Of a stretch of DNA of 64,000 nt, positions 3,382 through 41,512 are shown piece after piece. Position 1 is the stretch's first letter. Each line of letters starts with the position of its first letter. Source of the stretch: Candidatus Poribacteria bacterium (GTDB lineage: Bacteria; Poribacteria; WGA-4E; WGA-3G); the NCBI GenBank assembly GCA_026702755.1, contig JAPPBX010000017.1:13743-77742 (forward strand). The letters are read 5' to 3'. A model generated the notes under the pieces. It was not told where the DNA came from. It searched no databases and saw only the letters and a list, made by a program, of their open reading frames with translations. Made by a program: the position numbers and the translations under genes.

Positions 3382-3553
3382 AATGGCTATCAGCGGTCAG
3401 GTCGCTGCGCTTTCAGCAATCAGTTAAGAAACCTATGTGACGGTTGCTCGTGTGCTCACTCCCACAAACTGCTGATTACCGACTGCACTTACTAATATAG
3501 CACAATCACTCTTTGCTGAAGGCTCATTGCTGACAGCCGACAACCATAAAAAA

Positions 3554-17569: not shown

Positions 17570-17611
17570 GACTTATTCCCCCATAAGAAGCCGCTTCTAC
17601 CTCTTCTCAAG

Positions 17612-17800
17612 GTCACTAAGCAATTCAAAAGCGGTGTCAAGAACTGTCGGTTTCTTTGCACTATTTCTTAACATGAGCCACTTTTCCTCTGTGTTACACA
17701 CGATTCATCACTACCCTATGACATTCAAGGGTAGTGATGAATCTTATCGGCACTTATTTCAAAATAACCATCCGCTTCATCTGATGGAAAGACGGCGTGG
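17612..17800. repeat. Copy 1 of a ~180-bp conserved 3'-end element containing a 13-bp perfect inverted repeat (ttcatcactaccc ... gggtagtgatgaa)
   Basis: It is near-identical to 21817..21990 (aaggtcac[tg]aagcaattcaaaagcggtgtcaagaact.tcggtttctttgcactatttcttaacatgagcc ... ttcatcactaccc-loop-gggtagtgatgaatcttatcggcactta.ttcaaaataaccatccgctt). It overlaps the last codons of the 1078-aa gene. Confidence 0.6.
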
Positions 17801-20800
17801 ACAATCGGTAGAAATAAACACCACTTGAAACCCGCTCACCCACATCATTTCGACCATCCCAATAGGCAGCACGTGATCGACCTTGATAGAAACCCGCTGG
17901 CTTGAAGCCAAGCGAAAGCGTTCGCACCAATCGCCCTGTCGTATCGTAAATTGATAGCGTCACAGGGGCTGACTCCGAAAGGTGATAAGGTATCCACGTT
18001 TCCGGATTGAACGGGTTGGGATAATTCTGCAACACCAGGCTCTGCTTAGGTACGCCAATCCCCTTAAGTGTAATAGGAAGAACAGCGTTTGCAAGCGCCT
18101 CTGGTGTCACGACGAAACTCAGCTTCTCCGAAGCAATCTCTCCGGTTGCATCCGCAACGGTGACTTCCAGAGTGTCGCCAACCTGGACGACGCTCTGGTA
18201 GGAGAGATCGGCAGTCGCTGCGGCAAAGTAACCGTCTCGCACACGATTCGTCATAATAGCGTTCGTCCGCAGGTTTCGTACAGTGACCAGATAGCCTTCA
18301 AGGTTCTGCACACCTTCTAATTGCCCACTGACAACGAATGCCCAAGTACTACTTGGCGTGTCAATTGATCTTGCAATCGGTGCCGCAGGAACTTGCGGTT
18401 GATTTGTCCACGGTGCCCCGACAAAGGCAACCTGTCGGGCGTGCGGCACGTTGACGATGTATCCCTTTGCCCCTTCAATCGGGAATCCGTTGTCTGGTGC
18501 ATCCGGTGTCCAACCAACGAACTTTTGGTTGACATCATCAAGCTTAATTACCGTCGTTGCGCCAACCATCTCCGCCAGCGACCGAGCGTTCATCGGCGTG
18601 CGAGGCTTCAACGGTGAGGAGATCATGTTCAAGCCTTTGGAGAGAGAGGCGTAGTAGACCTGGCTGAAGTCATCTCCGTCTGTAGGCATTGGGGTGGCAA
18701 TGAAGCCGTGAGTCTGCTCTTCGCCGTCTTCCGAATGAATTTCAAACCAACCGACAATGACACCATCATCGTTAATGGCTTGTGCAACGGTGGTTTCTGC
18801 GCCGGGAATCCCGAATAGGTGAAACTCGCCCTCTGGAGTCCGTAGAAATCCCTGTACTTCAGAGAAATCAAGCGGCGCAGTGTGACCAACAATCCTGCCA
18901 TGATTGTCGATGTCATCGGGGAGCGTATGCCGCTCTGCGTTAATAGACAAAGTTGTGAACTCGCCATCCTCGTAAATTAGCCCATCAATAAACTCTGTTG
19001 GTGTAAATCCTGATTCAGGTAGATTCCAGCCCGCCATCACACCGGCGTTATTGATACCACGAAAAACATTGCCGCCAACACCGCCCGAAGAGGGAACTTG
19101 CCCGAAAGTCCCGTCCGGTTCGCGAAGAAAACTGGTGATGACGATGTCGTTTTCTGTTGGGAAATCGAAATGATACGAAGTGAGCTGACCGAGGTCGTTA
19201 ATGCCCCACCCGAAGTTATCGGCTGCACCCGGATTGACTGTGATAAACATACCGTCCGGTTCTCTCAGGAATCCGTGCTGCACGCCATCCGCGTCTTTAT
19301 ATCGACCCGTGATTTGGCCGGATGCATTGATTCCGAATGCCCGTGTGTCTGTTGCCCCTTCTGGAGCAATCGTCTCGAAGACACCATTTTTGAGCCAGAA
19401 TCCTTTCCGAACAGCGTTTGCATCCGCATAGCTCCCGACGATGTCTCCAGCGTTGTTGATACCGAAAAGCTCTGTCTCCGACGCACCTGCGAACGGTATA
19501 TCGACGACCTCAATATGATACGGTACACCTATTGTCAGGTGTATACCATCTGTGGAGAGGTCGGCGACAGACTCATGGCTGTGGTCAGCGTCATGTGATG
19601 GCGCAGGTCCCAGCGGTGCAACCCAATCCAAGGCTGTCATGTTCACTGGCTGCCCCTCGACAGAAAATGTCCTGCTGACTGATACTGTGTCAAGGTCAAC
19701 CTCAAGAATCTCACCGGTATTGGGATTGCTGACATAGGCGAACCCACTACCGACAGTCAGCGCGGGGCGGAGACCGTCCGCACCACTGAAATCTGCAACC
19801 ACTTGTGTCGATCCGAGCAACGTCCAATCGCTTGGGTTGAACACCTGTAACAGACCGTCAACGGTCAGCACTGCTAACCTATCTCCATGTTTCTTGTCAA
19901 AATCGAAACCTCTGTAGTCTGTTGGGAGTTGCTGAATGTCGTTCGGATCAAGCTCGGTCGAAGTGGGGTGGATACGGACGAGGGCTTTGTAGCCTGGATC
20001 CGGGCGGCTACCGTAATTGCCGATGGCAAACGGCTGGGCGTGATGAGACCTGACGATGCTCGTTCGCAGACCATCAGGATAAGCAATCTTGTGTGCGGAG
20101 AACAGACCGGTTACCGGGTCGTGGGTCATCACAAAAACGCCACCATCCCCCGTGCCATCCTCACGTTTCTCATTACAACCAGCTATGAAATGTTCACCGA
20201 CTATCGTTTCACCGTGCATACCGAGGCAGGATGCTTGGAAATCTTCCTTGTCGTTGAACGTTTGAACAATATTTCCGTGTTCATCAACTACCGCAAAGCC
20301 ACTCGGAAGTGATCCGAACTCACGGTCAGGATCCGGGAGCGAGAAAATTATCTTTCCACCGTGCACCGGTGCTCCAGCACCGTGCTGCGGCGCCGAGGTC
20401 AATATGAGCGTGTCCGGGTTGGGTAAGAACAGGTCTTCCTCGCGCACGGTGACGTTCTTTGAATCTACACCCTCACCAAAGTTGCCATCGAAGTGGATGT
20501 TAACGCGCCCATCGTGTGAAACAAAGTGAATGGGTCTTTGCGAGTTTGCGAGTTCGCCGGTCAGGTTGAACGGCAGCAAGCTCGGTCTGCCTTTCTCCTT
20601 ATCGAAATGATCGCCGTGTGCTTCGAGGTACAGACCGGAGTCGATGAAATTAACGCGATTGGCACCCGCTTGAACAGCGACTGCGATGCGCCCGCTTTCG
20701 GTCGTGTAAACACGTGCAGACCCTTCCACCATGAAGGTTTCTATCACTTCTCCATTGTCAAGTTCAATAAGTTGGAGTAAACCGGTTTCGCCATCTGCGA

Positions 20801-20927
20801 CAAGTAACCGACCCAGCGGCTCAGCATGCTCATCATCATACTCTTGTGCGATGGCTTGCATTGAGAGGATCGAACAAGACATCAAAAACATAAGCAGAGC
20901 CAGGGTGGCTCTCATGCAAGTAACCAT
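17754..20927 (-). CDS. Large secreted surface protein: N-terminal beta-propeller-like region (possibly AztD-like zinc chaperone fold), central HAF-family repeats, and a T9SS-type C-terminal sorting domain
   Basis: The ORF is open from 20990 (TTG). The likely start is the Met right after the conserved leader element (MVTCMRATLALLMFLMSCSILSMQAIA signal peptide). HAF-like repeats (FGINNAGDIVG, AFGINASGQITG, GWGINDLGQLT, FRGINNAGVMAG, AQAINDDGVIVG). C-terminal VLQNYPNPFNPETWIPYHL...VTLSIYDTTGRLVRTL...WDGRNDVGERVSSGVYFYRL is typical of TIGR04183/FlgD-Ig-like CTDs. Confidence 0.7.
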   Translation of the reverse strand: MVTCMRATLALLMFLMSCSILSMQAIAQEYDDEHAEPLGRLLVADGETGLLQLIELDNGEVIETFMVEGSARVYTTESGRIAVAVQAGANRVNFIDSGLYLEAHGDHFDKEKGRPSLLPFNLTGELANSQRPIHFVSHDGRVNIHFDGNFGEGVDSKNVTVREEDLFLPNPDTLILTSAPQHGAGAPVHGGKIIFSLPDPDREFGSLPSGFAVVDEHGNIVQTFNDKEDFQASCLGMHGETIVGEHFIAGCNEKREDGTGDGGVFVMTHDPVTGLFSAHKIAYPDGLRTSIVRSHHAQPFAIGNYGSRPDPGYKALVRIHPTSTELDPNDIQQLPTDYRGFDFDKKHGDRLAVLTVDGLLQVFNPSDWTLLGSTQVVADFSGADGLRPALTVGSGFAYVSNPNTGEILEVDLDTVSVSRTFSVEGQPVNMTALDWVAPLGPAPSHDADHSHESVADLSTDGIHLTIGVPYHIEVVDIPFAGASETELFGINNAGDIVGSYADANAVRKGFWLKNGVFETIAPEGATDTRAFGINASGQITGRYKDADGVQHGFLREPDGMFITVNPGAADNFGWGINDLGQLTSYHFDFPTENDIVITSFLREPDGTFGQVPSSGGVGGNVFRGINNAGVMAGWNLPESGFTPTEFIDGLIYEDGEFTTLSINAERHTLPDDIDNHGRIVGHTAPLDFSEVQGFLRTPEGEFHLFGIPGAETTVAQAINDDGVIVGWFEIHSEDGEEQTHGFIATPMPTDGDDFSQVYYASLSKGLNMISSPLKPRTPMNARSLAEMVGATTVIKLDDVNQKFVGWTPDAPDNGFPIEGAKGYIVNVPHARQVAFVGAPWTNQPQVPAAPIARSIDTPSSTWAFVVSGQLEGVQNLEGYLVTVRNLRTNAIMTNRVRDGYFAAATADLSYQSVVQVGDTLEVTVADATGEIASEKLSFVVTPEALANAVLPITLKGIGVPKQSLVLQNYPNPFNPETWIPYHLSESAPVTLSIYDTTGRLVRTLSLGFKPAGFYQGRSRAAYWDGRNDVGERVSSGVYFYRLSTPSFHQMKRMVILK

Positions 20928-21000
20928 AAATCGTGAAATAGCGACAGAAAAGTCGCGCTGAAAAAAATACGTAAACAATGTATTCTCCAATTTTTTTATC
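20928..21000 (-). promoter_or_regulatory. Conserved 5'-UTR element (copy A) that abuts the start codon and contains the GCGAC-N6-GTCGC stem-loop
   Basis: mRNA sense is aaaaaaattggagaataca.tgtttac.tatttttttc.g.gcgacttttctgtcgctatttc.cgatt.ATG. It is shared almost base-for-base with 26254..26330. Confidence 0.55.
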
Positions 21001-21335
21001 TAATTAGGGCTTACGCAGATCGCTCTTTTGTAGCATAAACTCTCTAACGAAGCGTCATAGACTCAAAATTGCGTAAGTCCTGCTAAATGAAATTACACTT
21101 AACGGCGAACATGCCACGCGAAACATATAAAACGCGTGTTGACATGTAGCCAGTAACGGATGCTTTGCGTAATAGATGTGCTTATGGACATCCCGAAAGC
21201 CGACCACGCATGGGTCCACAATCAGATAGCGTCTACTACAGAGCAAAGCAGCGGTGTACAAAGCGCGGGGCGCGTCATAGGTAACCCCGCGATCTTCGTA
21301 CAATCAAGGATATAAAGGAAAAACAAAATCTGCCT

Positions 21336-21707
21336 TTAAAAGGCATAATTTGCGAGTTCAGTGGAGAATACAGGTGGGGCACGACTTCGGGTGTGGATGA
21401 CCAGTTTTAGAGGGATAGAAGTGTCTTCATAAAGTCGGAGTTCAGTATGAAAAAAGAAAGGTGCGTTGAGAGCAAAAGGTTCAACCTCGAAACTGACGTG
21501 CTGGCTGCAAAAGAAGCAGGCTGCACAGGTATTCTCGCGCTGCGAGTGTTCGCTAGGGCAATGCTGGCAATGCGAATGTTCGCTATGATCGTGTGTCAGT
21601 TCGATGAGACCCAGCAGCGCGACGTAGCAACATAAACCTGCTAAAACACAGATTTTCAAACTACGCCTAAATATTAACTTGTTGGGAAAAGTCGTACCGT
21701 TTCTCAT
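21336..21707 (-). CDS. Small membrane-anchored His/Cys-rich protein (copy A)
   Basis: MRNGTTFPNKLIFRRSLKICVLAGLCCYVALLGLIELTHDHSEHSHCQHCPSEHSQRENTCAACFFCSQHV. There is a paralog at 26873..27220 with many synonymous codon differences over the first ~50 codons (GGT/GGC, CCC/CCA, TGC/TGT, TAC/TAT, CAC/CAT), which argues for a real coding gene under purifying selection. A consensus promoter lies 45-50 nt upstream. Confidence 0.6.
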   Translation of the reverse strand: MRNGTTFPNKLIFRRSLKICVLAGLCCYVALLGLIELTHDHSEHSHCQHCPSEHSQRENTCAACFFCSQHVSFEVEPFALNAPFFFHTELRLYEDTSIPLKLVIHTRSRAPPVFSTELANYAF

Positions 21708-21783
21708 ACACCAGAACCTATGGTTATGATTAAAAAAAATGAATGCGAATAAACTTGACGTAAATTATAGCACGCGATTGTGT

Positions 21784-21812
21784 CAATGTCAAATAGAACT
21801 TAAAAAGTTGAT
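21784..21812 (-). promoter_or_regulatory. Perfect-consensus sigma-70 promoter (TTGACA-17-TATAAT) reading toward the small His/Cys ORF and leader A
   Basis: The minus strand reads tTTGACAttgacacaatcgcgtgcTATAATtta. The -35 hexamer is duplicated in tandem (TTGACATTGACA). Confidence 0.6.
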
Positions 21813-21816
21813 AAGG

Positions 21817-21990
21817 TCACGAAGCAATTCAAAAGCGGTGTCAAGAACTCTCGGTTTCTTTGCACTATTTCTTAACATGAGCCGTTACACTCCTGCGAAT
21901 ATACAGATTCATCACTACCCAATGACCTTCAAGGGTAGTGATGAATCTTATCGGCACTTACTTCAAAATAACCATCCGCTTGAACGGTTT
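21817..21990. repeat. Copy 2 of the ~180-bp conserved 3'-end element with a 13-bp hairpin (ttcatcactaccc aatgaccttca agggtagtgatgaa)
   Basis: See 17612..17800. It lies immediately 3' of the ZnuA-like gene (minus strand) and its last bases overlap that gene's stop. Confidence 0.6.
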
Positions 21991-22954
21991 ATAACTCCGA
22001 TTTCCCAATCAAAGCATGGACAATCGTATCAATATTATGTCGGATCATCCCGATGTAGGTACCTTCAGGAGTTCCCTCGTTTCCCATAGCATCTGTGAAG
22101 AGCACACCACCGATCTTCACATCAAATCCTTTTGACTTCACAGCGGCTTTCACGGCTTCGAGACTCCGTGGAGAGACGGATGACTCTACAAAAATAGCAG
22201 AGATACGCCGGTCCGCAATAAACGTCGCCAATTCCTGTACATCAGCGATACCGACTTCTGTCGCAGTGCTAACACCTTGTAATCCGCGCACCTCAAACCC
22301 GTACCCCTTTCCGAAGTAGTTAAAACAGTCGTGCGCCGTCACAAGGACGCGTTGCTGAGATGGCACGCGTTCCACTTGCGACTTTACGTATGCGTCGAGT
22401 TCCATGAGTTTCGTGAGGTAGCGTTCAGCATTGCTTCGGTATAGGACAGTATTATCCGGATCGAATTCACTCAGGGCATCGCGAACCTTTCCCGCCGCTA
22501 GCATCCAAAGTTTCACGTCAAACCATAGGTGCGGATCGTAGAGTCCCTCGTATTCTGCGGGTGTTAGCAGTAGACTCCGATCTACGGCATCTGTTACGGC
22601 GACCGTCAGCGTGTCCTCCGACATCTTCGCAAGGATGTCCACCATTTTTGCTTCAAGGTGCAGCCCGTTATAGAAGATGATGTGTGCTGAACTCAGTTTT
22701 TGAACATCTTTAGGTGTCAGGTTGTAAAAGTGTGGGTCTACGCCAGGTTCCACTATCCCGGTCACCTCAACGCGCGTACCGCCAACATTTTTAACAATAT
22801 CAGTAATCATACCGATCGTGGCAACAACGCGAAGTTTGTCGCCTGTGGCAGCACCCGGTTGTCCCTTCGGATCACAGCCAGCCCATACCAATATACCTAT
22901 CAAACACACTGAAATGTATATTCTCTGCATAATTTTATGCATTTTCTGCCTCAC
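21989..22954 (-). CDS. znuA: Periplasmic metal (Zn/Mn)-binding lipoprotein of an ABC uptake system, ZnuA/TroA family
   Basis: Lipoprotein signal (...LIGILVWAGC). TroA-fold signatures (LRVVATIGMITDIVKNVGG, VDPHFYNLTPKDV, DPHLWFDV, VTAHDCFNYFGKGYGFE). No znuB or znuC gene is adjacent. Confidence 0.75.
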   Translation of the reverse strand: MRQKMHKIMQRIYISVCLIGILVWAGCDPKGQPGAATGDKLRVVATIGMITDIVKNVGGTRVEVTGIVEPGVDPHFYNLTPKDVQKLSSAHIIFYNGLHLEAKMVDILAKMSEDTLTVAVTDAVDRSLLLTPAEYEGLYDPHLWFDVKLWMLAAGKVRDALSEFDPDNTVLYRSNAERYLTKLMELDAYVKSQVERVPSQQRVLVTAHDCFNYFGKGYGFEVRGLQGVSTATEVGIADVQELATFIADRRISAIFVESSVSPRSLEAVKAAVKSKGFDVKIGGVLFTDAMGNEGTPEGTYIGMIRHNIDTIVHALIGKSEL

Positions 22955-23408
22955 ATGTTAAACAGGTCTTACAGAGGTGCCGATTCACGAGATGCGCGGA
23001 GGCGATTAAAACGCCGCCGATACTGTAGAAGACCACTTCAAAAGTGCCTTCAACGGCTATCTGAGCGGTAGCGATGAATGCTAACGCCGCTATCAGTACC
23101 AAAAACGCTCGCCAGTTTCGGTGGCGTCGAACACCCCACGCTAAACTCCCGATTGCCAGTCCAATTGCGCTCGCAATAAGGATAAACTCAACACGCTCAT
23201 TCGCAAGGAAACTCAACCCAATCAAAGGTAAAACTGTTCCTAAAAGCGGCATCGCGAGGCAGTGGATCGCGCATGCGAAAGGGAGACACGCCGCGCACGC
23301 GACAGAGAGACACGCGCCAGTTGTATTCGCCAATTCGTGGTTAAAATATCTTTTCAATTTTATCTCCTTAGAAAATCGAGAACGGCGGGCGATGATAGAA
23401 ATCATCAT
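22935..23408 (-). CDS. MerC-family inner-membrane metal transport protein
   Basis: TM1 Cys motif GACLSVACAACLPFACAIHCLA (compare MerC GCAACFPALA). LIGLSFLANE. C-terminal CKTCLTCE. Four predicted TM helices. Confidence 0.55.
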   Translation of the reverse strand: MMISIIARRSRFSKEIKLKRYFNHELANTTGACLSVACAACLPFACAIHCLAMPLLGTVLPLIGLSFLANERVEFILIASAIGLAIGSLAWGVRRHRNWRAFLVLIAALAFIATAQIAVEGTFEVVFYSIGGVLIASAHLVNRHLCKTCLTCEAENA

Positions 23409-23423
23409 CCCCGTCCTACAATT

Positions 23424-25703
23424 TTAAAAATTAAGTTTATACAAGAGTTTCGCATTCCGTCCTGGTTCCGGCATCGCCGATTTGATGCGGGACAGATGTT
23501 CGCGATACGTTGTATCAAAGAGGTTTTCAATCTCGAAAACGACCATGTTCTCAAGCTGCCACCACGAAAAATTGAGATAGCTCCCGATATCATAGACGAG
23601 ATAGCCGTCTGTCGGTTCCTCAAATTCACCGAGTCGGGTCTGGCTGCCTGAAAAACGGGACGCGACATACAAATGCAACGGGGCAGGCGTGTAACTGATG
23701 ACGAATTTACCGTTGAGGGGTGGGACACGCTCCAGCGGTCGCCCATTGCTTTGAATCGTTCCGTTGACGTAACTCATATTGAGCTGAAGATGGACTTGCG
23801 GCAGGACCTCACTCCCTATTTGGATTTCAGCCCCATCCATCACAACGTCGTGTCCCATGTATTGATAAATCCACAACCATCCTGCTGCGCCGCTGCCCCA
23901 CTCTTTTTCACCGCTGTTCATCGGAACGAGATAGTTCTGTATCTGATTCCTGAAAAGCGCAAGATTGAGTCTGAATCTGTCGTCTGCGTATTTGACGAAG
24001 AGTTCAGTGCCGTATCCGTTTTCGGGTCCCAGTTCTGAATTGCCGATTTCGTAGGAATAGACAGCCAAGTGCGGACCATCGCTGAAAAGCTCCTCGATCC
24101 CCGGTGCGCGAAACGTTTTCATCAGGGTAGCCCCGGTACTTAGCCTATCCGTCCAATGATAAATTCCAGAGGCAGCCCCTGAGAAACCGTTGAAATCGCG
24201 GCGTTGGACGGCTCCGGCTCGGACAACTGCCCCAGGTCTAAACGGTTCCGAACGTCTAATGTCGTAGCGGATAGCCCCTTGTAAGGTGAGTTTGTCGAAG
24301 TTACGCTGGTTTAGATAAAATCCCGCCAACGCGAGCTCACGGGTGTGAGGAGTCCAGTAAAATCCGTCTGTGGCGTGGTCTCGGTATTCCCACGAAACAC
24401 CTGCAATCGCGTTGTCTAATAGATGCGCCATCGCTGAGACGTTGTAGGTTAACAGACCGAATTCGACACCAAGTCTCCCGTTGGATTCCCATTCCTGATG
24501 CTGATAACGCGTATAGGCAGTCTGGAGTTTTACCTTTTCAAGTATTGCTGTATTGAAGCGGTACTCCATCTGTCCTTCATAACGTTGCTTGTCGAGTTCG
24601 ATGTTGACCCCGCTAATATGTCCTTCTGGTGAGCCGGGAACGCCGTAATCTGAACGATAACTGCTTCCCGAGGCACCGATGAAACCCCACGGCTTAATCA
24701 GCGAAGCACCGCCTGAAAAATTAACATTTGAAAGGGCAGTGTTTTTGAGTACACCTACCGGCGTTTGTATGTCAGATGCAAGCCGCCGATTCCATTCTAT
24801 ATTTCCCGCAAAATCACCAATTGGGAACGTAAAACCTGTCGTTCCGGTCAAACCTGAGTTGACAGATTCACCTTGGAACGTTAGATGCATATCCAGCCGT
24901 CTCGGTAGAATTTGCGGTATGTGATTGCTTTTGACATTGATGACACCGCCCAACGTACTTGAGCCGTAAATGAGCGATGCGGGACCCCGCGTAATTTCAA
25001 CACCTTCAGCGATCGTCGGATCAATCGATACGGCATGGTCGGCACTGGATGCCGATTTATCGCCCGTTCGCTCGCCGTTTTCGAGAATAAGCAGCCTGTC
25101 ACCGCCCAATCCACGAATAACGGGACGCGCAATCGCCCGTCCCATCGTTCGTTGTGAAATGCCCGTCTCATCTGCCAATGTGTTCGCCAAGGTCATCCCT
25201 AACCGTCTTTGGAGTTCCGCTTCACCCAATGCTAAGTCGGTTGTTTCCTCAAACTGTGAAAGAGAGCGATTTGAACCGTATACCCTGATGGTTTGCAGTT
25301 GAAACGGCAACGTCTCCAGTTCAATTTTGAGATAAGGCGTGGAGGCATTGACATCAATTACCTGTTCAAACCGCTGATAACCGACCTTCAGAAACTGGAG
25401 CGTCTGTTGTCCTTCCGGCACTGCGTCAAATTTAAACCGACCGTTTGCATCGGTCCGGACGCTTCCCTCAAGTCCCGCAATCTGGACTCTCACTCCACCA
25501 AGTCGAGCATGCGTCCGTACTTCCGTAACTTCTCCTTCCAAGGATCGCATTGGGTTCTGTGCACTTTGGGAATCCCTGAGATAGCAAAATAGGCATACTA
25601 TTATCCCAGACACCAACACGAGTAGGTAGGGACGCTTTCTAAGAATCCCTACCGTGGGAGATCTATGCGGACAGGCACAAGTGCTTGAACAAGTGCTTAA
25701 CAT
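23424..25703 (-). CDS. TonB-dependent outer-membrane receptor with an N-terminal carboxypeptidase-regulatory-like domain (ZnuD-like role inferred from context)
   Basis: CarbopepD_reg-like segment (GEVTEVRTHARLGGVRVQIAGLEGSVRTDANGRFKFDAVPEGQQTL). Plug (ITRGPASLIYGSSTLGGVINV). Long beta-barrel. C-terminal aromatic residue (...LLYKLNF). Confidence 0.8.
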   Translation of the reverse strand: MLSTCSSTCACPHRSPTVGILRKRPYLLVLVSGIIVCLFCYLRDSQSAQNPMRSLEGEVTEVRTHARLGGVRVQIAGLEGSVRTDANGRFKFDAVPEGQQTLQFLKVGYQRFEQVIDVNASTPYLKIELETLPFQLQTIRVYGSNRSLSQFEETTDLALGEAELQRRLGMTLANTLADETGISQRTMGRAIARPVIRGLGGDRLLILENGERTGDKSASSADHAVSIDPTIAEGVEITRGPASLIYGSSTLGGVINVKSNHIPQILPRRLDMHLTFQGESVNSGLTGTTGFTFPIGDFAGNIEWNRRLASDIQTPVGVLKNTALSNVNFSGGASLIKPWGFIGASGSSYRSDYGVPGSPEGHISGVNIELDKQRYEGQMEYRFNTAILEKVKLQTAYTRYQHQEWESNGRLGVEFGLLTYNVSAMAHLLDNAIAGVSWEYRDHATDGFYWTPHTRELALAGFYLNQRNFDKLTLQGAIRYDIRRSEPFRPGAVVRAGAVQRRDFNGFSGAASGIYHWTDRLSTGATLMKTFRAPGIEELFSDGPHLAVYSYEIGNSELGPENGYGTELFVKYADDRFRLNLALFRNQIQNYLVPMNSGEKEWGSGAAGWLWIYQYMGHDVVMDGAEIQIGSEVLPQVHLQLNMSYVNGTIQSNGRPLERVPPLNGKFVISYTPAPLHLYVASRFSGSQTRLGEFEEPTDGYLVYDIGSYLNFSWWQLENMVVFEIENLFDTTYREHLSRIKSAMPEPGRNAKLLYKLNF

Positions 25704-25713
25704 GGGAGTCCCC

Positions 25714-26253
25714 TTATTGAACAGTTACCGGTATGAGAAGTGCTCCCGTGAAGTCTGGATGGTCCCCGTGAAGGAGTTGAAGTTTGATGCTCGTTTCGCC
25801 TGCCTTCAATCCCTCGAGTCCAAATCCTAATTCTTCACCATGTTCTTCTTCACCATGTTCTTCTTCACCGTGTTCGTGTTCATCTTCATGTTCCAGATGA
25901 ATCTCAATAATAGCGGAATCGTACTCCGACAAGCCCAAGTTGAAGACTTCCTCATGTCCATGCTCATCCACTGCCTCTACTTCATCGAGATGGACTTCCG
26001 CTTCGTTCGCGTCAATAAATACAACATGGACCTCAATCTCTTCACCAACGCCAACGGTGAGACCGCCTTCATGGGCACCTTGATGTTGATGATAGACCAC
26101 TTCTCCATTAACTTCCAGGTTAAAGCCGTCGGCATCGGCATGCATGGGGGCATCCGTTTCGTGGTCGTGGTCATGGTCATCTTCAACAATAGGGTTGTCA
26201 CTTTCGCCACAACCTCCCATGAGGGGAAGTACGGTGACAAAAGTTAGTAACAT
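25714..26253 (-). CDS. His/Asp/Glu-rich periplasmic lipoprotein (putative low-affinity zinc-binding protein)
   Basis: The likely start is the Met right after the conserved leader element (MLLTFVTVLPLMGGCG, lipobox LMGGC). His-rich tracts (EDDHDHDHETDAPMHADADG, HLEHEDEHEHGEEEHGEEEHGEE, LLHGDHPDF). The ORF as printed continues upstream to 26385 by translating the conserved leader. Confidence 0.65.
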   Translation of the reverse strand: MLLTFVTVLPLMGGCGESDNPIVEDDHDHDHETDAPMHADADGFNLEVNGEVVYHQHQGAHEGGLTVGVGEEIEVHVVFIDANEAEVHLDEVEAVDEHGHEEVFNLGLSEYDSAIIEIHLEHEDEHEHGEEEHGEEEHGEELGFGLEGLKAGETSIKLQLLHGDHPDFTGALLIPVTVQ

Positions 26254-26330
26254 TAATCGAGAAATAGCGACAGAAAAGTCGCACCGAAAAAAATAGGTAA
26301 ACATTTGTATTCTCCAATTTTTTTTAAACT
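26254..26330 (-). promoter_or_regulatory. Conserved 5'-UTR element (copy B) that abuts the start codon and contains the GCGAC-N6-GTCGC stem-loop
   Basis: Plus strand reads cgagaaatagcgacagaaaagtcgcaccgaaaaaaataggtaaacatttgtattctccaattttttt. Compare 20941-21000 gaaatagcgacagaaaagtcgcgctgaaaaaaatacgtaaacaatgtattctccaattttttt. Confidence 0.55.
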
Positions 26331-26872
26331 TTTTTAATCTGATGGTACACAGTATGTGCCCATTGCTTCTAAAATGGAATTGCACTTAACAACGAAAATG
26401 CCACGCGAAAGATATAAAACGCGCGGTGACATGCCGCGAGTATCTCATGCTTTGTTAAAATAATAGATGTACCTATAGACTTCCTAAAAGCGTACCATTC
26501 ATTGATACACAATTAGGTAGCATCTACTATAACCCAAGTTGCTACTAACAAATTTTGGTGTTTGTGCTTGGGTATTTCTGTGTGTTTCAACACCACTTTT
26601 CAAGTATTTCCTCACCCCAGATGAAGTTTAATAAAATATTTGGGTAATTCTATGTTCTCCAGACCCGGTAGGTGCGGTTTCCCAACCGCACCGGGCATCG
26701 GTAAAAATTACCCGATTAAATTCTTAATCTTCATGAGAGGCGATATATCTATAGAATATAGAAGAACACCACAATATGTTGCAAAGCAGAGATGTACAAA
26801 GCGCGGGACGCGTAAATAAGGACCCGCAATCTTTGGACAATAAGAGATATAAAGGAAAAACAAAATCTGCCT

Positions 26873-27220
26873 TTAAATGGCATAATTTGCGAGTTCAGTG
26901 GAAGGTATAGGCGGGGCACGACTCCAAGCGGTCGTGGTAAATCTTAAAGGAAGAAAAACGATTTCATACAGCGGAAGCGTCGTACTTGGAAGAAACGGAG
27001 AGGTGAGTACTACCACCTCAATTTCCTCTCCGACGTGTTGGCTGTTGTAGACACAGGCTGTACAAGTTTCCTCAGAATGCGCGTGTTCACAATGATCGTG
27101 ATCATGCGTGAGTGCTATGACACTCAGCAACGCAACATAACAAAATAAACCTATTAAAATGCCGGTTTTCAAACTACGCCTAAAGACAAGCGTGTTTGGA
27201 AAAGCGATGCCGTTTCTCAT
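26873..27220 (-). CDS. Small membrane-anchored His/Cys-rich protein (copy B)
   Basis: MRNGIAFPNTLVFRRSLKTGILIGLFCYVALLSVIALTHDHDHCEHAHSEETCTACVYNSQHV. See the paralog at 21336..21707. Confidence 0.6.
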   Translation of the reverse strand: MRNGIAFPNTLVFRRSLKTGILIGLFCYVALLSVIALTHDHDHCEHAHSEETCTACVYNSQHVGEEIEVVVLTSPFLPSTTLPLYEIVFLPLRFTTTAWSRAPPIPSTELANYAI

Positions 27221-27273: not shown

Positions 27274-27302
27274 ATTATATCATACGATTATGTCAATGTC
27301 AA
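27274..27302 (-). promoter_or_regulatory. Perfect-consensus sigma-70 promoter (TTGACA-17-TATAAT) for the small His/Cys ORF and leader B
   Basis: The minus strand reads tTTGACAttgacataatcgtatgaTATAATatatcgc. The -10 is embedded in the palindrome GATATA-A-TATATC. Confidence 0.6.
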
Positions 27303-40483: not shown

Positions 40484-40565
40484 TTATCGGTTATCAGTTA
40501 CCTTGTTGTGGCACCAAAAGTTTTGTGGACATTACAGCATATCTGAACACCATAGCACATTAACT

Positions 40566-40619
40566 TTAACCATCAACTCGTCTACAGATACTTTTGCTAA
40601 GGCGCAAGTTGATGGTTAA
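40566..40619 (+). ncRNA. Hairpin RNA-like motif, copy 1: variable 8-11-bp stem enclosing the conserved loop TCTACAGATACTTTTGCTAAGGCGC
   Basis: ttaaCCATCAACTCGtctacagatacttttgctaaggcgCAAGTTGATGGttaa. Strand is inferred from the flanking genes. Confidence 0.45.
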
Positions 40620-40650
40620 AACTGAAGACTGATAACCGACAACCCTAAAA

Positions 40651-41298
40651 ATGATACAGTTGCACCAGGTTAGTTTCAGTTATGGCGATCTTAGTGTGCT
40701 CGAGAAGGTGAGCTTTCGCGTGGAACGCGGCGAATTTGTGTTTCTCCTCGGTCCAAGTGGCTCAGGGAAGACAACACTGTTGCGATTGTTATATGCTGAT
40801 TTAGAGCCGATTGGTGGTGATTTGAGTGTCGTTGGGCAACCCCTTGCACGGTTGGACAAAGTCAGTCTACCCTACTTTCGACAGAAGATAGGGATTGTTT
40901 TTCAAGATCTTAAGTTCTTGGCAGATAAAACGGTCCAGGATAATCTGGCACTGCCGCAGCGATTGGTAGGAACACCACCGCAGACAATCAAAGAAAACGT
41001 ACACAAGCTCCTGAATCAGATGGGATTGCTTCACCATCAAAATGCACTTCCAGCAGAAATATCTGGCAACGAGAGGCGACGGCTTGCTATAGCAAGAGCC
41101 GTTATCAACAATCCTCTGTTATTACTTGCGGATGCACCCACAGAGGGCTTAGATTTGCGCCTTTCGCTTGAGGTAATGGCACTTCTTGATGCACTTAATT
41201 TTCAAGGTATGACTATCTTTGTGGCGACGAGTGATCGACAACTCGCTGAGAAATGTAATAAGCGGATTATTGAGCTACGGGATGGTGGTATCCATTGA
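40651..41298 (+). CDS. FtsE-like ABC transporter ATP-binding protein with substituted catalytic residues
   Basis: Walker A LLGPSGSGKTTLL. Q-loop IVFQD. Signature ISGNERRR (canonical LSGGEQQR). Walker B LLLADAPTEGLD (canonical ADEPTGNLD; catalytic Glu replaced by Ala). H-loop VATSD (canonical ATHD). Confidence 0.75.
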   Translation: MIQLHQVSFSYGDLSVLEKVSFRVERGEFVFLLGPSGSGKTTLLRLLYADLEPIGGDLSVVGQPLARLDKVSLPYFRQKIGIVFQDLKFLADKTVQDNLALPQRLVGTPPQTIKENVHKLLNQMGLLHHQNALPAEISGNERRRLAIARAVINNPLLLLADAPTEGLDLRLSLEVMALLDALNFQGMTIFVATSDRQLAEKCNKRIIELRDGGIH

Positions 41299-41352
41299 AT
41301 CGTCATCGGTTATCAGTTAAGGGGTGCCCTGTTTAACCAAAAACCTCTTTTA

Positions 41353-41490
41353 ACCGGCAACTTTGACCAAGAACTCGCCTACAGATACTTTTGCTAAGGC
41401 GCGAGTTCGCATTAAACCAGAGCCTCTCAAACCGGCAACTTTGACCAAGAACTCGTCTACAGATACTTTTGCTAAGATGCAAGTTCTTAG
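41353..41490 (+). ncRNA. Hairpin RNA-like motif, copies 2 and 3 (tandem ~80-bp direct repeat, each with a stem enclosing the CTACAGATACTTTTGCTAAG loop)
   Basis: accggcaactttgaccaaGAACTCGCctacagatacttttgctaaggcGCGAGTTC and accggcaactttgaccaAGAACTcgtctacagatacttttgctaagatgcAAGTTCTTag. The stems differ between copies but stay complementary. Confidence 0.45.
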
Positions 41491-41512
41491 TCAAAACCGA
41501 CAACTATAAAAA

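Follow-up and report, generated by a model that had tools for sequence, protein, structure and literature searches.

Two paralogous modules in front of metal-uptake genes

A 64,000-nucleotide (nt) stretch of DNA from a Candidatus Poribacteria bacterium (contig JAPPBX010000017.1), referred to below as the window, contains two copies of a short conserved element at the 5' ends of two unrelated genes, here called cargo genes. The host phylum, Poribacteria, consists of uncultivated sponge symbionts. An earlier note on this DNA had described the element as a free-standing unit of 70 nt; it is instead the distal end of a paralogous module of ~0.9 kb (repeat families D6, D9, D13, D14 and D18). In each module a promoter is followed in turn by a small gene termed geneX, a terminator-like hairpin on the geneX stop codon, a block of ~135 nt that is conserved, a spacer that varies and finally the element. 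The two unrelated cargos share the element because each of them sits behind such a regulatory module. All features of the modules, as well as the genes that they precede, lie on the minus strand.

Cargo 1 (17754..20978) encodes a 1074-aa secreted protein with an AztD-like zinc-chaperone propeller and a C-terminal sorting domain of the type IX secretion system (T9SS). Cargo 2 (25714..26304) encodes a 196-aa lipoprotein rich in His, Asp and Glu, with the lipobox LMGG-C, and is the first gene of an operon that continues with a ZnuD-like TonB receptor (23424-25703), a MerC-like protein (22935-23408) and ZnuA (21989-22954). The order geneX2, lipoprotein, TonB receptor, MerC-like protein, ZnuA is syntenic in more than 15 genomes. 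Upstream of the cargos, geneX1 (21336..21707; 123 aa) and geneX2 (26873..27220; 115 aa) encode proteins with 58% amino acid identity to each other, and the intergenic regions that separate them from their cargos are 357 and 568 nt long.

The element is the start of both cargo genes

The repeat itself is real. On the minus strand, positions 20925-20977 and 26251-26303 are 91% identical without gaps (family D14), and similarity extends to ~20998 and ~26325 when an insertion or deletion (indel) of 1 nt is allowed. There are exactly two occurrences of the 22-mer GCGACTTTTCTGTCGCTATTTC (20935-20956 and 26261-26282), with 0.00 expected from shuffles, and the GCGAC-N6-GTCGC inverted repeat that the earlier note reported was also found (20956-20941 and 26282-26267). 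The position assigned to the start codon was mistaken. The ATG codons at which the element was said to end (20927-20925 and 26253-26251) are an internal, in-frame Met18; the open frame spans the whole element in both genes (open reading frames, ORFs, 17754..20990 and 25714..26385), and the 1078-aa protein that the element was thought to precede is the product of an ORF that already includes it. A Shine-Dalgarno (SD) sequence, said to be lacking, is present as GGAGA at 20988-20984 and 26315-26311, 5 or 6 nt before TTG at 20978 and ATG at 26304. The statement that most other genes use an SD site is roughly right, 30 of the 51 long ORFs in the window having one.

Both cargo genes have their true 5' end in the element, which comprises SD, start codon and 17 codons of an N-terminal extension. 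In the AztD-like gene these are the SD region UGGAGAAUACA (20979..20989), the SD-proximal TTG (20976..20978) and codons 2-18, FTYFFQRDFSVAISRFM (20925..20975), the last of which is the Met previously taken for the start. In the His-rich lipoprotein gene the SD region UGGAGAAUACAA and the ATG (26304-26302) occupy 26302..26316, and are followed by codons 2-18, FTYFFRCDFSVAISRLM (26251..26301), which include the inverted repeat and Met18.

Altogether 26 copies of the element were recovered, all from Candidatus Poribacteria, always at this locus and each downstream of a geneX. Fifteen came from the window and loci L001-L019, four from a protein database and a scan of metagenome DNA, and seven from look-ups of geneX homologues. 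SD-less or leaderless initiation is rejected, as GGAGA stands 4-6 nt before an in-frame ATG (22 copies) or TTG (4 copies) in 26/26; TTG is used in all four genomes with the AztD-like module, ATG in all lipoprotein-type copies. Except in two long-read assemblies of 3-4x coverage with obvious indel errors, the frame is open into the cargo in every copy, and the conserved extension reads MFTYFFxxDFSVAISRLM. No indel is found between the start codon and codon 33; the DNA upstream is full of them, and the single one between the window copies is in the spacer between SD and start. Independent gene callers place the start at this ATG in 7 loci.

The substitution patterns fit coding sequence. All four Thr codons (ACA, ACC, ACG and ACT) are used at codon 3, Arg16 appears as both CGA and AGA, and synonymous divergence in codons 2-18 is 0.23, compared with 0.28 for the rest of the gene, which rules out exceptional nucleotide-level constraint on these 17 codons. 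Between the two window paralogues, 2 of 13 synonymous codons differ in the element and 25 of 66 in geneX, which seems to be no real difference (no formal test was made). At the protein level residues 10-18 are conserved above the gene average and residues 4-9 below it, and Met18 is invariant among the copies.

Without the extension, the lipoprotein would have no positive charge before its hydrophobic core and lipobox. By inspection, cargo 2 has a signal peptide of the lipoprotein type (SPII) with a charged n-region (...AISR), an h-region (LMLLTFVTVLP) and the lipobox. A search for ESPR (PF13018), twin-arginine translocation (Tat) and other signal-peptide families gave no Pfam or NCBIfam match at E <= 10. 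A Tat signal was also rejected, since the extension has a single Arg (AISRLM) and no twin-arginine motif S/T-R-R-x-F-L-K.

A weak hairpin within the coding region

According to the earlier note, the element was an SD-less, pyrimidine-rich and structured leader immediately in front of the start codon, and perhaps a protein- or metal-responsive switch based on its GCGAC-N6-GTCGC hairpin. The sequence in question, GCGAC-UUUUCU-GUCGC (20941..20956), forms a weak 5-bp stem that covers codons 8-13 and thus is coding, not part of a structured 5' untranslated region. Support for this hairpin is modest. In an alignment of 15 sequences it was no better than shuffles; with 23 sequences, 92% of cells pair, covariation scores 0.275 where shuffles give 0.205 (2/500 shuffles attain the observed value), and at one pair a single clade has changed from A-U to G-C. 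Its presence in most copies, these values and the invariance of Met18 speak for the proposed leader. Against it stand the upstream SD with its in-frame start and the open frame, by which the proposal is largely refuted, as well as a stem that is broken in L011 and L018 and single-sequence fold z-scores of -1.0, -1.6, +1.3 and +0.6 for the hairpin region. In the window copies no SD-like sequence precedes Met18, and initiation there would leave the lipoprotein signal peptide without a positively charged n-region. We therefore consider that model very improbable; a hairpin may form here, but not as a leader structure.

No Rfam family matches any part of the window at gathering score, and at E <= 10 over 20800-21900 nothing credible appeared, the matches being at chance level. 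A riboswitch or other curated cis-regulatory RNA was consequently rejected, given also that the element lies inside an ORF and that covariation of the hairpin is marginal. A second hairpin, in which an A-run and a U-run enclose the SD of the window copies, was discarded as not conserved, being absent in L011 and L014.

geneX resembles the leader ORFs CruR and CutF

The product of geneX1 has an N-terminal hydrophobic segment, a putative export signal, a His/Cys-rich stretch, the CXXC motif CAAC at residues 61-64 and RAPP at 109-112; in that of geneX2, CTAC is at 53-56 and RAPP at 101-104 (codons 26920-26909). By inspection the N-terminus is RRSLK followed by ~20 hydrophobic residues. The gap between CXXC and RAPP is 44 residues in both. 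The two motifs are present together in 117/119 family members, spaced by 44-45 residues in 107 of these 117, and RAPP is invariant in the 28 DNA copies examined. Homologues form 117 clusters, for which the sole organism named by any source is Candidatus Poribacteria. Three of them (P0029, P0069 and P0082) pass the Pfam cut-off of 23.7 bits for DUF2946 (PF11162), at 27-30 bits.

In CruR of Bordetella (Bp2923, a DUF2946 protein) CXXC and a C-terminal RAPP arrest motif are 45 residues apart; copper relieves the arrest and so permits Rho termination before the gene for a TonB receptor, and long structured intergenic regions are typical of DUF2946-type leaders (PMC9426467). In Rhodobacter, a stem-loop with an anti-SD covers the SD of the gene after cutF and is opened by stalling on CutF (PMC9973294). 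These family hallmarks suggest that geneX is a metal-sensing leader ORF of the CruR/CutF (DUF2946) type. In a search for further copies of the element, which the earlier note had suggested, all true copies in public data precede the starts of metal-uptake genes and none were found elsewhere.

The RAPP codons of geneX1, CGU GCC CCA CCU, are at 21372..21383. By the arrest geometry of the RAPP peptide (PMC10951233), the P site is expected at 21377-21375 and the A site at 21374-21372.

Complementarity between the geneX tail and the cargo SD

The codons of the RAPP tail are nearly invariant from the last Pro onwards, CCU GUA UUC UCC A(A/C)U, and in reverse complement they match the SD region of the cargo, (AA)UUGGAGAAUACA. 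In module 1 this anti-SD, UGUAUUCUCCA (21362..21372), starts on the final base of the A-site Pro codon, runs through the codons for Val, Phe and Ser and takes in one further base. It is an 11-bp perfect complement of 20989-20979, with a free energy (dG) of -16.3 kcal/mol that ranks 1/675 windows. Across loci the complement is 11-14 nt long and the distance from RAPP to the SD is 322-605 nt. When every 20-nt window from the geneX start to the SD was scanned as a potential partner (600-800 windows per locus), the post-RAPP window was the best SD partner in 20/23 loci, plus L035 and L036 (22/26 overall), with pairing energies of -10 to -20 kcal/mol. After shuffling of the anti-SD strand, 0/2000 sequences reached the observed energy in 7 of the 8 loci tested, module 1 among them.

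Prediction of secondary structure without constraints recovered the same helix. The regions folded ran from RAPP to 40 nt past the start (413-461 nt; 461 nt for module 1), and in W1, L019, L011 and L032 the SD/anti-SD helix appears in both the minimum free energy (MFE) and the centroid structure, where it closes a multi-branched domain. The z-scores of the whole regions are -5.1, -3.8, -5.1 and -3.2, respectively.

After RAPP it is the nucleotides that are conserved and not the protein. A frameshift changes the tail to RAPPATLQ-stop in L035 and L036, yet CUCUCCAAUA is kept, complementary to UAUUGGAGA; in L019 and L032 the ORF ends directly after the anti-SD; and the Phe of the anti-SD is encoded by TTC in 27/28 copies, although a Phe 17 codons upstream is TTT in all 25 copies that have it. 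Toeprints show that the footprint of an arrested ribosome reaches +16. Counted from the first base of the P site, the anti-SD occupies +6 to +16, beginning with the third base of the A-site Pro codon, and would thus lie inside the footprint of a ribosome arrested at RAPP if the geometry of PMC10951233 applies. Codons past the A-site Pro would be untranslated at arrest, so that function as an arrest peptide presumably cannot explain their conservation.

Taken together, the SD, the start, the open frame, the hallmarks of the leader and a complementarity with this position and conservation, all established by sequence and computation, lead us to propose, with a probability of about 60%, that the element is a gene start whose SD is masked by the post-RAPP anti-SD and unmasked by arrest on the leader. 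What we infer is that the ribosome arrests, which metal is involved (zinc or copper), in which direction the switch works and that pairing is effective over this distance. While the stretch is free of ribosomes, the anti-SD would pair with the SD, close the structured intergenic domain and block initiation at the cargo. A ribosome arrested at RAP/P would occlude the anti-SD, leaving the SD free and the cargo translated. Metal on the nascent chain, or the pull of export, would then relieve the arrest, the ribosome would terminate 11 codons on and the SD would be masked again. The expected polarity for an uptake system is expression when metal is scarce, which matches this switch. Dedicated metal-linked translational control of both genes, as the earlier note had imagined it, is thus a plausible idea, but it would work by SD/anti-SD pairing and not by the local hairpin. 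Within the window, the pairing is complete in module 1, whereas most of it is gone from module 2.

Evidence against masking, and control at other levels

Several observations weigh against masking of the SD. The first is module 2, where the anti-SD is degenerate (UAUACCUUCCA, AUA CCU UCC; 26899..26909; dG -5.0 kcal/mol, rank 186/885 windows) and a 673-nt fold contains no long-range helix, even though the element is kept at 90% identity. Pairing is also weak in L010 and L037, so it cannot be the sole reason for conservation of the element. Secondly, the long-range helices show no covariation beyond shuffles and only 1 double change; the test is uninformative because both strands are almost invariant, and 85.6% of cells are paired as against <=51% in slid controls. 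Thirdly, five genomes without the AztD-like gene and its SD (L002, L003, L007, L008 and L009, checked by regular expression) retain GUA UUC UCC in an intact geneX1; these genomes are near-identical in this region, and there may have been too little time for decay. A distance of 322-605 nt, moreover, is far beyond that in SecM or CutF and unprecedented for arrest-controlled masking, and the authors of the CutF study regard unfolding driven by stalling as limited to short intergenic regions (PMC9973294). Assignment of the leader is affected by the window proteins themselves, since geneX1 has no Pfam match to DUF2946 and geneX2, at 17.0 bits, is under the 23.7-bit cut-off. Finally, the terminator-like hairpin or Rho-dependent termination could be the real control point or an additional one.

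Module 2 carries an insert of ~250 nt (26531-26780) between the geneX2 terminator region and the block; the insert is partly shared by L010 and contains a GC-rich hairpin and a promoter-like site, TTGCAA-18-TATATT (26784-26755). The insert coincides with the degenerate anti-SD of geneX2, and module 2 may have escaped leader control.

These points bear on another explanation, that of an ordinary gene start without masking. The element would be shared by module duplication or gene conversion, the complementarity would have no function, and control would be exerted by the leader via Rho, as in Bordetella, or purely by transcription at the promoters. In the Rho version the arrested ribosome would keep Rho away, and relief of arrest by metal would lead to termination of transcription within the long intergenic region. 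The coding evidence applies to it equally. CruR works via Rho and belongs to a family in which the intergenic regions are typically long and structured (PMC9426467); the sequence after the geneX stop is U/C-rich and G-poor; and module 2 and L037 without a good anti-SD, the persistence of the anti-SD after loss of the cargo and the lack of covariation in the SD/anti-SD helix (helix A below) are all accommodated. Both promoters match consensus sigma-70 at 12/12 hexamer positions and have a TG extension; that of module 1 (TTGACA-17-TATAAT; 21764..21792) is paralogous to that of module 2 (27274..27302; family D13). Inspection by eye of the promoters and the intergenic block, with no formal test, revealed no convincing Zur-box-like palindrome. 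The geneX stop codon lies in the loop of a terminator-like hairpin, UGCCUUUUAAAGGCA, that is followed by a U-rich tract, GAUUUUGUUUUU (21331..21345 over the geneX1 stop and ~26868-26882 in module 2). It is conserved in most loci and may provide partial intrinsic termination or a region where Rho enters.

What this explanation leaves unaccounted for is a perfect complement of 11-14 nt exactly in the footprint of the arrested ribosome, which is the top partner of the SD in 22/26 loci, has an energy that shuffles never reach in 7/8 loci and survives a frameshift of the tail. A helix recovered by unconstrained folding of four divergent regions of 0.4 kb is hard to attribute to chance. Absence of masking is possible but rather unlikely. 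Rho control and masking of the SD are not mutually exclusive.

A more elaborate form of masking, with two states, was also considered. Next to the SD/anti-SD helix (helix A), a helix B can be drawn between the 5' arm of the local hairpin, GCGCGACUU, in cargo codons 8-10 and AAGUCGUGC in geneX just before RAPP. The start codon would be held in an internal loop between the two helices, the geneX strand of the bipartite duplex would be entirely inside the arrested ribosome, and on release the 5' arm would refold into the local hairpin. RNAduplex predicts the bipartite structure with -20 to -31 kcal/mol in most loci, and helix B is part of the centroid fold of W1. Although the residue encoded by codon 8 may be R, C, H, Y, G or S, the codon is N-R-C throughout, and codon 9 is G-R-Y, encoding D, G or C, in all copies except one (UGC in L035); this suggests constraint at the RNA level. 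The codon patterns are explained equally well by the local hairpin, however, and helix B shows no covariation. It is significant in W1 only (4/2000 shuffles) and does not exceed shuffles in L013, L016, L019, L032 and L035, and as a general feature it was rejected, remaining tentative for W1. We thus regard the two-state form as quite unlikely, and the single SD/anti-SD helix is the form of masking retained here.

A structured block in the intergenic region

The conserved intergenic block is located at 21079..21213 in module 1, with hairpins H1 (~21193-21174) and H2 (~21151-21104; loop UUUUAUAUGUUU), and at 26366..26500 in module 2 (family D9). Its stems vary by compensatory substitutions and its loops are conserved. 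In a structure (P0, H1 and H2) drawn by hand on a MAFFT alignment, 83% of cells are paired (78 +/- 1 in shuffles) and 23 cells are doubly changed (10.9 in shuffles), neither value being reached by any of 500 shuffles; slid controls gave at most 61% pairing. A covariance model of the block matches only the two window sites and homologous sites, including L031, L032 and L034 on which it was not trained, and in the alignment made with this model 15 pairs are changed on both sides (8.0 +/- 1.8 in shuffles). The block is probably a structured RNA and may help to bring the ends of the long-range helix together. It is not essential, since it is absent or replaced in L012, L014, L015, L018 and L033; in L031 it is split by an insert of ~190 nt.

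The spacer between block and element is variable. In module 1 it is an insert resembling a miniature inverted-repeat transposable element (MITE), with the inverted ends GGACTTACGCA...TGCGTAAGCCC (21007..21080), which is absent in L001 and L006. Related inserts (GGACTTACGCA...TGCGTAAGYCC) are found in L004, L016, L031 and L033 at different intergenic points. At a distance of 15-30 nt upstream of the SD, modules of the lipoprotein type have a hairpin, GGYACAC...GUGURCC, after which comes AUCAGAU (26344-26360, in minus-strand sense). Homologous sites are present in L011-L019, L028, L031, L032 and L034, where the stem differs between lineages yet stays complementary; the AztD-type module has none.

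A different short repeat, AACTGACnnCTGAnnnCTGACAACnATT, is located at 3521, 11117, 36015, 40620, 48494 and 55489 (family D5) and at 40562-41505 (family D4). It ends a few bases before the ATG of at least three window genes (40651, 41513 and 55531). In L012, L014, L015 and L018 a repeat of this kind stands in place of the intergenic block. It may serve as a promoter or regulatory motif, or else be a small mobile repeat.

Distribution of the modules and rearrangements around them

When GTDB genomes were scanned with geneX, 19 loci were obtained, which are all syntenic and all from Candidatus Poribacteria. In metagenomes a degenerate 24-nt pattern had 9 matches, of which two were true copies in the same context and 7 were unrelated, about the number estimated beforehand for chance. 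The N-terminus MFTYFF...AISRLM was sought in other proteins with a profile of 44 aa, and only two fragments were found, both from the same locus.

An exported, possibly surface-displayed relative of AztD is unusual. Besides the propeller, cargo 1 carries HAF repeats, and its T9SS domain is a type-A sorting domain. In L001, L004 and L006 the AztD-like cargo has at least ~780 aa, the ORF reaching the end of the fetched locus. Six genomes (L002, L003, L005, L007, L008 and L009) have lost the AztD-like gene together with the element, and only a C-terminal T9SS fragment remains. In the window, geneX1 and the AztD-like gene are bracketed by direct repeats (17609-17777 and 21813-21981, 4204 bp apart) composed of blocks of 71 and 76 nt that are 96-97% identical. 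In other genomes orf197 precedes geneX1 rather than following the AztD-like gene. This arrangement suggests a recent rearrangement or the junction of a tandem duplication.

Comparison with known systems

The closest known system is CruR in the bp2923-bfrG-bp2921 operon of Bordetella pertussis (Roy et al. 2022, PMC9426467). Like geneX, it is a small first gene of a metal-uptake operon with a TonB receptor, and its product is exported, as is probable for that of geneX; CXXC and RAPP have nearly the same spacing (44 residues here), the intergenic region is long and structured, and the next gene initiates de novo. By contrast, regulation of that operon is by Rho-dependent termination, with no SD masking described. 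RAPP is 3 residues from the stop in CruR, whereas 11 residues (4 in some copies), bearing the anti-SD, follow it here. The context also differs, being of zinc type (ZnuA, ZnuD-like and AztD-like proteins) instead of copper, as does the phylum, and the window proteins are below the Pfam cut-off.

CutF-cutO of Rhodobacter capsulatus (Ozturk et al. 2023, PMC9973294) resembles the proposed mechanism in having a nascent exported metal sensor with a C-terminal stalling motif, and in that stalling frees an SD from an anti-SD. There the stem-loop is local, in a short intergenic region, and copper enhances stalling, as the downstream gene serves detoxification; here the anti-SD is inside the leader ORF and the SD 0.3-0.6 kb away.

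Ribosome arrest on a RAG/P-type motif disrupts a helix that sequesters a downstream SD in SecM-secA, MifM-yidC2 and VemP-secDF2 (summarised in PMC10951233 and PMC7897499). What is sensed in these cases is the export of protein and not metals, and the helices involved are local. In place of the local stem-loop over a short distance that is common to SecM and CutF, the Poribacteria modules would represent a long-range variant. Masking over such distances does occur in the phages MS2 and Qbeta, where SD and start of the replicase gene are masked by pairing inside the upstream coat ORF, hundreds of nt away (the Min Jou interaction). As proposed here, ribosomes on the upstream ORF open a long-distance masking of a downstream SD; any translating ribosome does so in the phages, and neither an arrest peptide nor a ligand is involved.

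With regard to the N-terminal extension, the ESPR (PF13018) of autotransporters and TpsA proteins and the YSIRK signal peptides are conserved extensions common to different passengers. The extension encoded by the element similarly stands ahead of a normal signal peptide and is shared by different cargos, but it has no sequence similarity to them and is confined to one locus in one phylum.

Implications

A general lesson concerns annotation. Where a start that appears to lack an SD is found beside a conserved repeat, an upstream in-frame start should be looked for first.

The leader family has been known since 2022-2023 from Proteobacteria, for copper. The loci described here extend it to an uncultivated phylum of sponge symbionts, and to operons with components of zinc type (ZnuA, a ZnuD-like receptor and an AztD-like chaperone). 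They also suggest a third wiring of such leaders, beside Rho termination and the local stem-loop that shields a ribosome-binding site, in which the anti-SD is placed in codons within the arrested ribosome. Because RAPP arrests ribosomes of E. coli, the hypothesis is testable in a cell-free system. A wider version, in which nascent-chain sensors responsive to zinc and not copper drive zinc-scavenging genes through a long-range anti-SD clamp across a covarying RNA domain, is at present speculative and rather doubtful. If true, it would be without precedent both as a post-transcriptional zinc sensor of this kind and as an arrest peptide that acts through a long-distance helix.

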